Of a DNA stretch of 64,000 bases, positions 20,401 through 26,400 are shown piece after piece. Below the pieces are notes generated by a model. The model saw nothing but the letters and a program-made list of their open reading frames with translations, did no database searches and had not been told where the DNA came from. This DNA is from Obrimoposthia wandeli. Its lineage: Eukaryota. A program made the position numbers and the translations under genes. The stretch lies in NCBI GenBank assembly GCA_977020255.1, contig CDROCS010001696.1, forward strand, positions 1,116,001 to 1,180,000, written 5' to 3'. Positions within the stretch are counted from its first letter, which is position 1. The number at the start of each line of letters is the position of its first letter.

Positions 20401-23400
20401 TTTCTGTTTAACAAACACTATGAACAACAAGTAAACAGCAGTAGGTGGATGTGTCCGGTCTAATCCACCCCTCTCCCCCTCACCCCCGGTGGGGGCTACC
20501 CCACTGTCCTTTAAAACCGTGCATGTGTGTGGAGTGATATTTCATGCATGTGTGTGTGGAGTGAATTTTTCTATCACCCCCCACCACTGTAAAAAACTAA
20601 TTAACCCCATTTAACACCCTTTAAAATTGAAAATCTCATAGTACTCCCGCAGAGTGAGGAAGTGCCTGAGGCCATCTAAGGGCCAACGCGTGCTCTTCGG
20701 ATCCGCGGTAACCTGACAAGCAATACATATATACAGGGTCTTAGACTTTACTTTACGTTGACGTTTCACGATCAACTTCTTAAAAGGCATTGCAAATTTA
20801 TTTTTTATAATTGTTCTCTATTTGTTTATAAACAGTTACTACCTTAGAATTAAATATGTCTGTCAAAACATGTAAATCAGCTGAGCAAGCTTGTGTAAAA
20901 TCAATAAATATATGCCCATGTGCTTGTTTAGCAGCATCATGGAATGAATCAACAAGAAACTTCTTATTTTTGGGAAATGCCTGTCTGGCCACGAAATCTA
21001 CAACTGTTTGATCTCTAGGATTTTTAAATAAAACTAAGTAATGTACATTAAGATTTCTTGTTCTTTGGTGACCTCCTTGGTGAAAAAGATTTTGAGTGAT
21101 AAATATAACTGTTACTTCACGATGTCTTACAATCTTTGTAAATAAATTATTGAAGTCCGATTCCTTGTTAGCTTTCTGATACAAATCATCAATTATTATT
21201 ACATCTTCTTTTTTCAATCTTTCACACCAATTTGCATCAAATCCTTCAATAAATTTTATTCCCTTCAACTTGCAAACTTATGTTTTGATTAATCCGATTT
21301 CCCCTCCTCCACCATGATGCCAATAAATATTTTTGAAACTAAAATTTAAAAGAGATTCATTTTGCAACAATTTACATACGAAATGTGTCTTTCCACTTCC
21401 ACTGGGACCAACTATTTGAAATACAGCATTATTATTTAGCTCCATTACATATACTCTTTCATTTTAATATTGTTTATATTATCATAGAAGTTTTCTTATT
21501 GAAATGTACAATGTTAGAGCTATTATAGATGAAATAACGTGTAATCTAACCAATATTTCAATGGTATCTTTTGTTATATCATTATTTTTTAATTCTGTTC
21601 AAATTTGTTTACCCTTAACTTTTTCCACTTCATTGTCTCTATTTATAGTATTATTCATTTGAAACAATAAGTTAAACGGGTTTGTTTATAGAAAAGATAA
21701 CAAGATGTAATAAGATATATTTTCTAAAATCTAAATTACAATGTCTGGATAATCAAAATTTTTCAATCCCAATATCATAACTTTACCACTGGAAAATATA
21801 TTTACACATATCGTTTTAAACTTCAAATAACTGAAGGCAGGAAAAATTTCTGGTTCAAACATGCATTCTTCTTTCATTTTCTCTGCAATTTTAAAAATAT
21901 TTATTTGTTTCCCAAGATTAGCCGAAATTGTGATTGATTGTATTGTAGTGATTCGAATTCCAAATGGTAAATTGATCTCTAGCAAAGGTATTTTGCATCC
22001 CATAACACGACAACTTCCTAACAGAATTCAATATAAAAATAAAATACTAACCTGTAGGAAAAATAACAACTGTGAAATTGTCAAACCTTTTTACATATTG
22101 TCTCGGCTTCCATTCATTGAATGGTAAGTACGAAACATCATCTTCTATACTACCTTTATAATTTAAATTTTAGAGTTTCATTAGACTAACATTTTATTCT
22201 GTAAATTCTTATTTATATATGTCTGAACCTGCTTTTTTATTGCGCATTTCTTGTAATTATCTTGCAAACCTAATATAATTGGATGATATATTTCTTCCAA
22301 TAAATTTTGATTTTTAATATGGATTTAGTCCAATCAAATTTAATGCTTTAGTTATATTAACCAATGAGATTCATGTCTTTGTTACAAATTAGTATAAAAG
22401 AATGCGCCATTGAAGGACAAATCACAATAAATGGATTCATATCAAAGACAATTATCAATGATGGACGATAGCCAACGGATATTAAGCGGCGACGAAGATT
22501 TAGAAATGTTTGAAGAATCGGATAAGGATATGTATGAAGAAGTGAAACAATATTTCAAATACAAAGTCAGATTCTTGAAGAAGGCTCAACTGATTGCTTT
22601 AGAAATCTTGTGACAATTGAAAGAAGAAAGTTCAGCTACTATCTATCAAATATTCAAAAAACAGATTTTCAATATCTTAAACAGAAAGTTGAAAAGGTAG
22701 TTCCAAATTTTACTTTCAATAAGAACGAATTTTATATCCGAGGACCCGATGAAGCATTTCTAGATGACTATGGAAGATATGTTGATATTGATGCGTTTCC
22801 AAAAAAAGAAGCAATGGGCTGTAACTATTCGACTTTATGGTTTCAAGAAAGATGAAATGGGAACAAAGTTGCCTATGTAGAAAATTGAACGGGCTCATAT
22901 TTCTATGTTTTAACTTTTTTCGTTTGCGTGTAATAAATTGTAATCGGTTTTACTATATTTCTTTCATTTGGCAATTAATAATCAGTTTTATTTTTAAAAT
23001 ATTTGTATCTTATAGTAAATCTTATGTATTTTTATCTTATATGTATTCATTTATAAATATTGTTTTTAATCAGTTTCCTTATTATAGAATGGATAAGAGA
23101 TGTGTAGCAAATTTTTATTATCCAGAAAGAATTTCAAAAGGAAAACTATGTAATATATTAAAGAAGCATCAAATTATACGAGTTATGAATCCTGTGAAAA
23201 TATCAAAAGTGGAGAATAAATATTTCATCGAAATTTTAACAACATCTGATATTTATCAATTAAAAAAATATTTTTGGATTTTACATTCCTGATTATGTAT
23301 ATGAAGGAAATTTTTCCCAGCTTGAAACTGATCCCAGTCTGGCTTTTAGAGATGATCTAGGATATTTGATTGCTCCAATTTTAGATGTAGAACTATGGAA

Positions 23401-26400
23401 TATCTCAATACGTCTCTATCGATATTTTACTGATGACGGGAAAATGCAGCCTCTTTGGACTTTGAGTGAAGCCAATATGGTGTTTTATGTTTGATTAAAT
23501 AAATGTTTTGAAAATAATTTTGTTTTTCACCTCTAAATTATATATATATCTGTAGTAATTTATTAATCTAAAATCTTTCTTTAAAAAAGTAGTAATATAT
23601 TCACATAAACATATTATTGGAAATCTCGTCTGTGATAAGCCGCCGGGGTCAATATGGATTCCCGTGGTCTTATCTAATCACCTTTGAGATTAGCAGTAAA
23701 TTTAAAGTAAAATTTTTAAAAATGTGGGGGTTACCGCCCCCTACCCCTTCGGGTGGAATGGACACACACATGCACGAAATTTCAATTCCCACACATGCAT
23801 AAAATTTCACTCCACACACATACACGAAATTTCACTCCACACACATGCATGGTTTTAAAGGACAGTGGTAGCCCCCCCGGGGTGAGAGGGTGGATGAGAC
23901 CGGACACATTCACCTACTAACAGCTTAACCTATTGAGTATCCTAATTTAATATCGCCAATGAGACCACAACCTTATGACAATTTCTGTTTCTACTACTAT
24001 TTATAGTTAGGATAATTTAAAAGAGGAAAAAACAGAAAATATATGGAATAAAAACCAGCAACATATATACCAGTAATTCGAATGATGTACTCGCGAGTTT
24101 GATAGAGCACTGATTTATCAACAGTTTGCTGAGAAACCAATTTGAATATAGTGGAAGTTCGACTAATTGCATCAAAAGCAAAATTGTGAAATTGGTTAAT
24201 TTATGATAGTAATACAAAATTACGCTTTTAAAATCAGTAAATATTTTAAGATTAAAGCTAATAGTGGAATGCGAATGAGTTCGATTGACAAAGTTACTTG
24301 TAAGCGCTTGGAAGAAGTCAAGGAAGTTGTGTTTCGGTTTGACAGTGAAACCTTTCTTTGGTTGATAAAGCTTTTGTGGCTATTCACGTAGGAGAAATAA
24401 AATATACAATTTCTAAACAATGGTTATATGTTCCTTATCAAAAAATCCAGCAGATATTTTCGTGACAGATACATATACTCGTGACAGCGAAGCATTTCAA
24501 AGTGCTAAATATAAATCACGGTGGAATGGATCACAATTTATATCAAAAGCTATCAAAACAAGAGTGAAAATACATAAAAGGAGCATATAATAGCATTAAT
24601 CACTTCAGTTTCAGATGGTTTCCAGGTGGAGATTTATACCTGTTTTGGAAGATTAGTGAGAGCTTGGATTATGAGATTTATTAATAATTGTAAAGTTATA
24701 CAGAGGAGACGGAAATTAACGGAAACAAATTTAAATCAAGGCCCATGTCTCAAATAATGACTCCATTGGCTAGTTTTCGTTTCAAAGAACCATTAACAGC
24801 ATTTGCAACAGTTAGGGATATATTTCGCTGGGCCATTTTTGATCAAGCAAGGTAGAAAGAAAACATGTGAAAATATATATGCTTGTTTATTTACTTGTTT
24901 ACAAACGAGAGCCGTTCATTTGAAACTAAGCTATGGCCTGAACACTGATTCATGTGTAGATGTGGTCGACCAAATACATTTATATCAGATAATGGGACAA
25001 ATTTTGTGGGAGCTGTGAATGATTAAGAGCTATAGATTGATGGACTCAAGGTACAGAAAGAAATGGCAGTTAACAAGATTAGGTAGATATATTTTCCTTC
25101 CGAAAAACCATATTTGGTGGAATTATCGAAGCTATGGTAAAGTCGGTGAAGCGAGCCATGTATAAGATCTTGAACAATGTCAATGTGACTGATGAGGAAT
25201 AAATCACCTCGTCGTTTTGATAGAAGTAGAACAGCTGGTAAATTCAAGACCAATTGGTTATAAAGGAACAAATGAAGATGATACCGAGGCATTAAATCCC
25301 AACCCCTTCATTATAGGCGAAGGCTTCACAAATAGCTAAGATGCCGTTGAGGTTCATTCAAAAGACTAATCAACATTTATGGAATCAATGGATGGAAGAG
25401 GTTGTTCTTCTATGGGATGTGTGAGATATGTGGTGTGAGGAAAAGAATCCTTGCGAATAAATTATGTTGTTTTAATTTTAAACAATAAAAATGAAAGAGG
25501 AACTTGGGCACACATAACGATTTTTGGCTCAACCCTCTACTCCTTGAAGTTATGTTCTCGAGTGGACATTTTTTAGCGATTACAGAGACAAGGTCCATGT
25601 CATGGACTTTGCCCCAGTATTCGATCAAAAGGTGTCCTCTCGAGAACATGACTTCAATGGAGTCTAACGTGAAGTTCTCGAGTACACTGTACACTACTGA
25701 CCAATTTTGTCCAACCCCTTGATCAGGAGATTATAAGAAGTTTCAAAGCAAATTGGAGGAGAAAACCTTTAAAGAACGAAATAAAAAATTATGAATGAGA
25801 AGGTTGACATAAACGTTTTAGAAGTAATAAGTTTAATATCAGAATCGTGGGATCCTGTAAGTGGTGTCACCATTAGAAACTACTTTAAAAACGCCTTCAC
25901 AAATGATCGTGTTGTTGAAGTCATTGAATATGACGTTAGTAAAAAGGAAATCAGTAAAATATAAGTTTAATTAGGATTGGAACATAATTCAGATGAAGTT
26001 ATCCATGTTAAAGACGATCTAAATGAGCTCTTCGAAAAGCCCAATTTTGAAGAACTTTTAAAAACCAAGCCCAAGAAAAAAAAACGCTATTTTTGAAGTA
26101 GAAAATGTGAAGGTTTATGAAGTGAGAAAAAATCAAAATCACGATAATCTACTTGAATGAAACTAGTTGAGTTTTAAGTTGGCTTCAAATTTTTCATAAT
26201 TAAAAGTGTCTTTAAAATGTATTTTATCTGATTACTTGGAAAAATAATTGGTTAAATTATTCGAATAAATACAAATAATTTATAATGCAATTGATTTCAA
26301 AAGAATTATGATTTCTAGTTAAATAAATTTTCAATTACAGCATACCTTTATTTGTAATCCCAAATTATGTATAATGCGAAAGTTAGTTGTAATTCGAAAA

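Follow-up and report, generated by a model that had tools for sequence, protein, structure and literature searches.

The stretch of DNA analysed here (the window) comprises 64,000 nucleotides of contig CDROCS010001696.1 from Obrimoposthia wandeli and contains, at positions 20440-23918, a very short Polinton of 3,479 bp that is flanked on both sides by the hexamer AACAGC. We lean towards the view that this mini-Polinton is one copy of a non-autonomous Polinton derivative, ~3.5-3.6 kb in length, which was amplified by the enzymes of a helper element. That the short form as such was amplified, be it passively or because its genes are under selection, is likely.

The termini of the element read AGT…ACT, and Polinton ends are AG...CT. 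The initial annotation had described AG...CT ends and a target-site duplication (TSD) AACAGC on either side, both of which were recovered (Table 1); the probability that two random 6-mers of the window agree is ~0.0007. It had also proposed terminal inverted repeats (TIRs) of ~125 bp. Their size (131 and 118 nt) agrees with this, but the repeats are not perfect now, since their alignment has 109 identities, 9 mismatches and 13 gap positions. An exon encoding the Pfam DZR (double zinc ribbon) domain is found at ~19993-19814 on the minus strand, with the element just upstream on that strand, and an exon encoding CHB_HEX_C_1/Fn3_assoc is found at 33.1-33.4 kb on the same strand. This domain pair is that of DZANK1, so that an intron of an animal-type host gene is the most likely location of the mini-Polinton. 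Both outer flanks (19200-19601 and 24024-25200) are moderately repeated, with an X1 depth (see below) of 1,300-11,000.

Contigs of four of the five runs that contain the 6-kb stretch with the element were aligned to it at 80% likeness. Three runs (X1-X3) are from one sample, and X5 is a marine metagenome from another study. The results refer to 31 sites in the element, 15 of 1,717 joints and the six best-supported loose ends per run. In X1, 130,022 contigs fell on the stretch. Across the 18 bins that touch the element the summed contig depth, which is not a copy number, was 0.87-2.83 million; the four bins on its left side had 48-431, and on its right side, where another repeat lies, the values were 1,300-5,000. 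The profiles of X2 and X3 had the same shape as that of X1, with sharp edges at both TIRs, and in X1 the depth of the TIRs was about equal to that of the genes. In X5 the element was thinly covered (0.45-9.6) and the flanks next to it were uncovered. Relative to the single-copy depth of 48.3, taken from an exact flank contig, the 31 sites have a median of ~2x10^4 and a lowest value of ~1,100; assuming a worst-case 31-fold overcount due to overlap, the same ratios are 730 and 36. We read these values as a family of ~10^3-10^4 copies. The initial annotation had considered either that the unit integrated at its present size by means of a helper integrase or that it shrank in place by internal deletion, and a single-copy element would have refuted it. 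Since all parts of the element are present at very high depth, it is not single-copy, and the helper integrase becomes the more likely of the two. Two further fragments of the mini-family, corresponding to parts of the genes for the single-stranded DNA-binding protein (SSB) SSB-A and the packaging ATPase and with no TIRs nearby, are found in the window at 13638-13921 (85%) and 39007-39117 (91%).

The gene content of the element can be compared to that of metagenome loci with a related ATPase, of which there are at least 41 (596 stretches listed), which represent a sample. Where the contigs reach, their gene order is SSB, TATA-binding protein (TBP), variable genes, ATPase, basic open reading frame (ORF), conserved small ORF, integrase and capsid-region genes, and SSB, TBP and ATPase form a contiguous left block of the lineage. 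In one relative, L014, a single contig carries SSB, TBP, ATPase, integrase and capsid genes as well as, on the other strand, a 1,089-aa polymerase. The Lys-rich basic ORF begins within ~30 nt of the ATPase end in all 19 relatives examined (19/19). In the element, similarity to this gene ends near 20740, after ~17 codons, and the frame continues to 20611 without further homology. Thus, judged by gene order and the truncated basic gene, one deletion between ~20740 and the subterminal sequence at the opposite end accounts for the gene content of the element, and the retained SSB, TBP and ATPase genes need no special explanation. The initial statement that the element "keeps" ATPase and TBP implied a choice for which contiguity in the relatives and a single deletion can be substituted.

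The same annotation had reported that polymerase, integrase and capsid genes are missing from the element, and tblastn searches with intact genes of the relatives and of another Polinton of the window, 11.3 kb long and referred to as the neighbour, bear this out. The integrases of neighbour and relatives and the capsid and protease ORFs of the relatives gave no match inside the element, and the L014 polymerase matches the window only at 58738-61068 and 63571-63996. The minor capsid and protease labels for the capsid-region genes of the relatives are our assumption; NCBIfam and PDB sequence searches gave no name for these genes, and a 408-aa ORF among them resembles double jelly-roll capsids in a low-confidence predicted model (pLDDT, predicted local distance difference test, of 43). 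As to the genes that are present, the divergent layout was confirmed, ATPase and TBP being encoded on the minus strand and another two genes on the plus strand, whereas a fifth gene and the stub of the basic gene had been overlooked, and the two genes of unknown product are now assigned to an SSB family.

Table 1. Features of the mini-Polinton and its borders, in window coordinates.
Feature	Position	Strand	Remark
Left TSD AACAGC, 6 bp	20434..20439		identical to right TSD
Left TIR, 131 nt, starts AGTAG	20440..20570	+	holds short 25-27 nt repeats
Subterminal DNA without protein homology	20571..20740		putative deletion junction near 20740; depth trough at sampled sites 20667, 20710
Stub, ~17 codons, of the Lys-rich basic ORF found behind the ATPase in relatives	20740..20790	-	
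A32/FtsK-type packaging ATPase	20798..21445	-	one in-frame stop at 21278-21280
TATAAAC box	20824..20830	-	40 nt before basic-gene ATG
TATAAAC box	21472..21478	-	33 nt before ATPase ATG
Fifth gene, unknown product, broken	21480..21658	-	ATG at 21658; between TBP and ATPase
TATAAAC box	21684..21690	-	32 nt before fifth-gene ATG
TBP-like gene, exon 2	21707..22017	-	PF00352, E 1e-12; premature stop near end (21731-21733)
34-nt GT...AG intron, phase 1, inside a Gly codon	22018..22051	-	predicted from sequence
TBP-like gene, exon 1	22052..22181	-	stop at codon 4
SSB-A, T7 gp2.5/Enc34-type SSB family	22431..22890	+	frameshifts near 22602 and 22801, stop near end
SSB-B, more divergent SSB-family paralogue	23089..23494	+	frameshift near 23264
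25-bp tandem repeat, 3.5 copies	23763..23849		extends into right TIR
Right TIR, 118 nt, ends CTACT	23801..23918	-	
Right TSD AACAGC, 6 bp	23919..23924		identical to left TSD

Close counterparts of the element are TBP-encoding Polintons from metagenomes (L001, L002, L006, L010, L014, L016, L017 and L020), which share its order of SSB, short TBP (144-161 aa), ATPase and basic ORF as well as the TATAAAC box before the ATPase; in L016 and L017 the SSB is also divergent from the TBP. They differ in that, where the contig reaches, they continue into integrase and capsid genes (in L014 also the polymerase), whereas the element stops in the basic gene, and in that their TBP is intronless. Moreover, each of the six relatives that show an SSB has one per locus, versus two in the element. 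In an ATPase tree with 26 rows, the element, the neighbour and most relatives fall into one unresolved fork, with 16/23 inner branches open, so that no parent can be named. The TIR pattern of the element was found 0 times in viral and prokaryote collections and in 44 loci, and a TIR pair of any kind was seen in 0/12 listed loci checked. When viral contigs were searched for the ATPase, single-protein queries gave 0 loci and an alignment query gave 3 distant ones. The slot before the ATPase varies among the relatives (L008:190-3325, L005:675-1260, L016:2948-4338) and holds genes that by eye are phosphatase-like, TRAF-like or RING-like as well as unknowns, forming a variable cassette. L021:11-307 departs from the other relatives in that its TBP and ATPase are encoded head to head on opposite strands.

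The two plus-strand genes are predicted to encode paralogous gp2.5-like SSBs, with DNA binding deduced from the fold. A profile made from a six-member homologue alignment retrieved 105 proteins among 1.84 billion, and a family hidden Markov model (HMM) built from the 102 matches shorter than 300 aa was run on 2,750 pieces of the window together with reversed controls. It matched SSB-A in three pieces (E 5e-12, 2e-5 and 4e-3) and SSB-B in two (E 4e-5 and 1e-3), while the best reversed-sequence control had an E of 0.41. Only the profile search retrieved homologues: SSB-A and the SSB of the neighbour had no match in word-seeded protein searches or in the Atlas, and the SSB genes have no Pfam match. 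A model predicted for the L014 SSB (116 aa, pLDDT 91.7) was compared to 48,161 chains, of which the top four were 5odk (Enc34 SSB; Z 8.6, root-mean-square deviation 2.8, 103 aligned), 4klk (DUF2815; Z 8.5), 1je5 (T7 gp2.5; Z 8.1) and 8hw5 (CP312R of African swine fever virus; Z 6.7), followed by the next unrelated chain at Z 5.6. The same L014 model also matches giant-virus proteins, with E values of 2e-5 to 1e-3. A Foldseek search against the PDB gave no match at E <=0.001; its top rows were nonetheless the same SSBs. The family appears to share the OB fold with gp2.5, Enc34 and CP312R, but is shorter (116 aa) and only ~9-10% identical to them, and the chain modelled is that of the relative L014 rather than of the window genes. 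Thus, the gp2.5-like SSB would represent a previously unannotated gene family of this Polinton lineage. Three proteins of 1,815-2,835 aa (P0167, P0212 and P0221), which match the SSB profile in 7-10 stretches each, probably repeats, were excluded from the HMM.

On the minus strand, the ATPase of the element is 70.6% identical to that of the neighbour over 211 aa; both of its pieces have weak Pox_A32 matches, and relatives of the ATPase of the neighbour carry PF04665. The TBP-like gene is well supported, since exon 2 scores 48.1 bits against a Pfam cut-off of 22.9 for PF00352 and the best solved matches are TBPs (E 4e-12). Its break was tried as a frameshift, which could be ruled out; it reads as a GT...AG intron. 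The TBP of the neighbour has a 38-nt GT...AG segment at the identical place (48449-48486), while in the metagenomic relatives the intron is absent from 7/7 genes checked, which read through. From these sequences, both segments would be a spliceosomal intron gained in the lineage of this host. A TBP is encoded by 10/41 listed metagenome loci; it is thus a normal gene of this Polinton lineage, and the earlier suggestion of a TBP mimic found no sign of mimicry in its favour. The fifth gene lacks ~65 nt near 21536 that are present in other copies and shows a further difference near 21624. That it is a homologue of the gene at the same place in the neighbour was ruled out (shuffle p 0.38-0.77).

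A TATAAAC box precedes the ATPase across the lineage. It is found 32-37 nt before the ATPase ATG in 14/15 relatives and also in the neighbour, and among other late genes of L014 and L005 it is found at 33-36 nt in 6/9 checked and at 42 nt in one more. The conserved Y-K-Q end of the ATPase overlaps the box of the basic gene. The TBP is not preceded by the box in any of 6/6 relatives, nor in the two elements of the window, where TATAAAT is found instead, and the box is absent before the SSB genes. The TBP may act on the TATAAAC box.

This copy is an older insertion that has decayed neutrally, and its source was less broken. Stops or frameshifts interrupt each of its genes for ATPase, TBP and the two SSBs and also the fifth gene. 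At all 31 listed sites a letter other than that of this copy makes up at least 95.7% of the depth, and the 18 coding ones among them are distributed 6/6/6 over codon positions 1, 2 and 3 (884 further rows were not listed), which argues for neutral decay after insertion. At the codon-4 stop of the TBP, which is one of these private sites, 98% of the depth reads another letter, and other copies, X5 included, differ by indels at both SSB-A frameshifts. The X5 pieces are 4.8% different from this copy, which agrees with the divergence of the TIRs (9/118 aligned sites). Compared to the neighbour, the ATPase has a pN of 0.177 and a saturated pS of 0.755, indicating long-term constraint but silent on the time after the deletion. 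When this copy is compared to two local fragments of unknown origin, the synonymous changes number 12 (53 sites) and the non-synonymous ones 23 (217 sites), resulting in a pN/pS of ~0.47 (92 codons, Fisher p 0.037), which is a weak hint of constraint.

If the short form spread with a helper, its history would have been as follows. A TBP-encoding Polinton would have undergone one large deletion, starting ~17 codons after the ATG of the basic gene that follows the ATPase, which removed the integrase, both capsid genes and the polymerase and left both TIRs together with the SSB-SSB-TBP-x-ATPase block. In established Polinton biology the integrase excises and inserts the element and the protein-primed polymerase copies it, and polymerase-less polintons that stayed mobile are described for insects in the accessible part of 10.1101/2025.02.07.637071. 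Likewise, the polymerase of a helper would copy the short form in trans, and its integrase would insert the copies via their TIR ends, leaving a 6-bp TSD. The copies would reach the order of 10^3-10^4, with the genes riding along mainly as neighbours of one end, and the present copy would have inserted in a host intron some time ago and undergone neutral decay since.

Several observations weigh against such a spread of a short form. The X1 depth near the putative junction is 763,000 at 20643, 166,000 at 20667, 53,000 at 20710 and 745,000 at 20770; at 20710 it is 2-7% of that of adjacent sites in X1, X2 and X3. Among the contigs seen, none extends 31 nt past the junction in both directions, and the contigs at 20710 and 20770 overlap by only ~5 nt. 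This trough may reflect a segment specific to a subfamily, private changes by which alignment is blocked, or a family in which most copies continue into other sequence. High depth on all parts would also be expected for a full-length family, X1-X3 are one sample and possibly the source of the window, and neither a second whole copy with another TSD nor an empty site was found among the 15 of 1,717 joints. Moreover, no helper with matching TIRs was identified. The dip in depth and the missing bridge are also what one would expect if the abundant family were full-length (~12-15 kb) and this copy had lost its middle after insertion, an explanation which we consider rather unlikely. It would leave TSD and both TIRs intact, as these survive an internal deletion, and it fits with the other private losses of this copy, such as the ~65 nt near 21536. 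A 23-mer resembling the TIR of the mini-element (2 mismatches) at 63343, ~200 nt from the polymerase fragment at 63571-63996, could belong to a polymerase-bearing member of the family, and full-length Mavericks reach thousands of copies in Trichomonas according to the available text of PMC10120064. However, even the trough segment at 20710 has ~1,100 times the single-copy depth in X1 (92 contigs), which a private junction would not predict unless the alignment failed. The best-supported loose ends of all runs are small indels and the private 65-nt gap, none being near 20740. Both findings favour a shared short form, and 10^4 full-length copies would total >100 Mb.

Whether the genes of the short form were more than passengers is a separate matter. 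Phage satellites come with packaging and activator genes of their own, and by analogy the SSB, TBP and packaging ATPase could have been retained for function in trans in a helper-dependent short family: the SSBs would aid strand-displacement copying, the TBP would activate late genes with a TATAAAC box and the ATPase would load helper capsids. We hold this to be improbable. The three genes of known kind do form a coherent set for replication, activation and packaging, all three minus-strand TATAAAC boxes lie 32-40 nt before a start codon, several breaks (the codon-4 stop of the TBP and both SSB-A frameshifts) are not family-wide, and the pN/pS value points in the same direction. Yet contiguity alone explains the gene set, the synonymous excess comes from 92 codons with an uncorrected transition bias and from fragments that may derive from full-length copies, open frames in the source would also be expected if the deletion shortly preceded the burst, and this copy evolves neutrally. 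Finally, an assembly artefact or chimera of Polinton fragments, with the stops being sequencing errors, is hardly credible. No listed contig spans the whole element, and stops in integrated viruses are often assembly errors according to the text seen of PMC10120064. But two X1 flank contigs match with 0 differences over 935 and 460 nt, and the longer one (19529-20463) crosses the left junction, which makes an artefact there unlikely; moreover, an exact TSD, matched TIRs and a conserved gene order would not be expected of a chimera.

Animal Polintons are usually described as long and few, and Repbase has non-autonomous Polinton entries. [quoted passage not shown] It departs from them in length (3,479 bp), in the lack of polymerase B, integrase, capsid and protease genes, in its very high copy number and in the broken state of the genes of this copy. 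By its internal deletion from a full-length form and its many copies it resembles a derivative instead, and its sequence therefore suggests that it behaves as a non-autonomous Polinton derivative and falls outside the autonomous Polintons. The Pieris polintons without polymerase, as far as the text of 10.1101/2025.02.07.637071 is available, are likewise TIR-flanked and still mobile, but are insertions of at least 12 kb with long interspersed nuclear element (LINE) or long terminal repeat (LTR) cargo, whereas the element also lacks integrase and capsid genes. In the internal-deletion derivatives of TIR transposons described in the part seen of PMC3014272 the ends are kept, the middle is lost and the autonomous form is outnumbered, the last of which would also hold for the element; it differs by retaining five genes or gene remnants. 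The same part of PMC3014272 remarks that non-autonomous Polinton copies are apparently absent from the anole genome. Elsewhere, a figure legend in the available part of PMC8502044 has a TBP label on MELD viruses of non-animal datasets, intron-generating elements inside dinoflagellate polintoviruses are described in that of PMC12166617, and the accessible text of a coral preprint (10.1101/2023.10.06.561300) has no passage on TATA, non-autonomous copies or introns. In literature that mostly excludes subscription papers, we found no description of a Polinton that is at once short, high-copy and gene-bearing, nor of Polintons with a gp2.5-like SSB, and no paper naming a nonautonomous Polinton, a non-autonomous Maverick or an adintovirus with a TATA-box binding protein.

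The copy number is solid, as are the annotations of SSBs, intron and promoter. A short derivative with 10^3-10^4 copies would show that Polinton polymerase and integrase accept short templates in trans, and thousands of natural copies could be used to test whether the packaging ATPase stays selected when there are no capsid genes in cis, a point relevant to particle formation by animal Polintons. Should the genes be selected, the family would be the equivalent of phage satellites in eukaryotes and would point indirectly to animal Polinton virions. If this copy shrank in place, the locus would be an ordinary pseudogenised remnant and only the annotations of SSB, intron and box would remain. Independent of the copy-number mechanism, an SSB family is named, an intron is common to the TBPs of two diverged elements of one host, and the TATAAAC box before the ATPase is confirmed across the lineage.

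The window contains further Polinton sequences. The 11.3-kb neighbour (44608-55913) has TIRs of ~45 nt, no visible TSD and several broken genes. It encodes an SSB, an IAP (BIR/RING), the intron-bearing TBP, a dual-specificity phosphatase, ATPase, integrase, capsid-region genes and an exonuclease-like ORF; no polymerase match was obtained and no protease ORF was recognised in it. As a direct parent of the mini-Polinton it was ruled out by a nucleotide identity of 72%, the saturated pS and different TIRs, the two elements sharing only ~14 terminal bases. A third start of the AGTAGG type is found at 57475, with 99-100-bp subterminal repeats (57475-61150); its other end was not found. It is followed by a protein-primed polymerase gene, nearly complete and frameshifted, which lies on the minus strand (58738-61068) and is 38% identical to that of L014. 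The polymerase-less and polymerase-bearing elements, side by side in the window, could be complementing partners.

At the right edge of the window (63343-64000), the TIR-like 23-mer is followed by a polymerase fragment that runs off the window. In shuffled controls 0/100 reach 3 matches, and the 23-mer is a candidate trace of a helper, although its neighbourhood may be due to chance given the many family pieces. Between the two polymerase fragments, a GC-rich frame of 197 aa on the minus strand (61483-62073) has a hydrophobic start and no Pfam match; its look is, we assume, that of a C-type lectin. Decayed ATPase and integrase fragments of another Polinton family (57% and 48% aa identity to L001) are found at 41931-42770, and the sequences at 28255-28365 and 31299-31405 resemble the subterminal repeats of the element starting at 57475 (75-83%). 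Finally, nested inverted repeats with arms of 34 and 38 nt at 14792-15001 form a small hairpin unit or one that resembles a miniature inverted-repeat transposable element.

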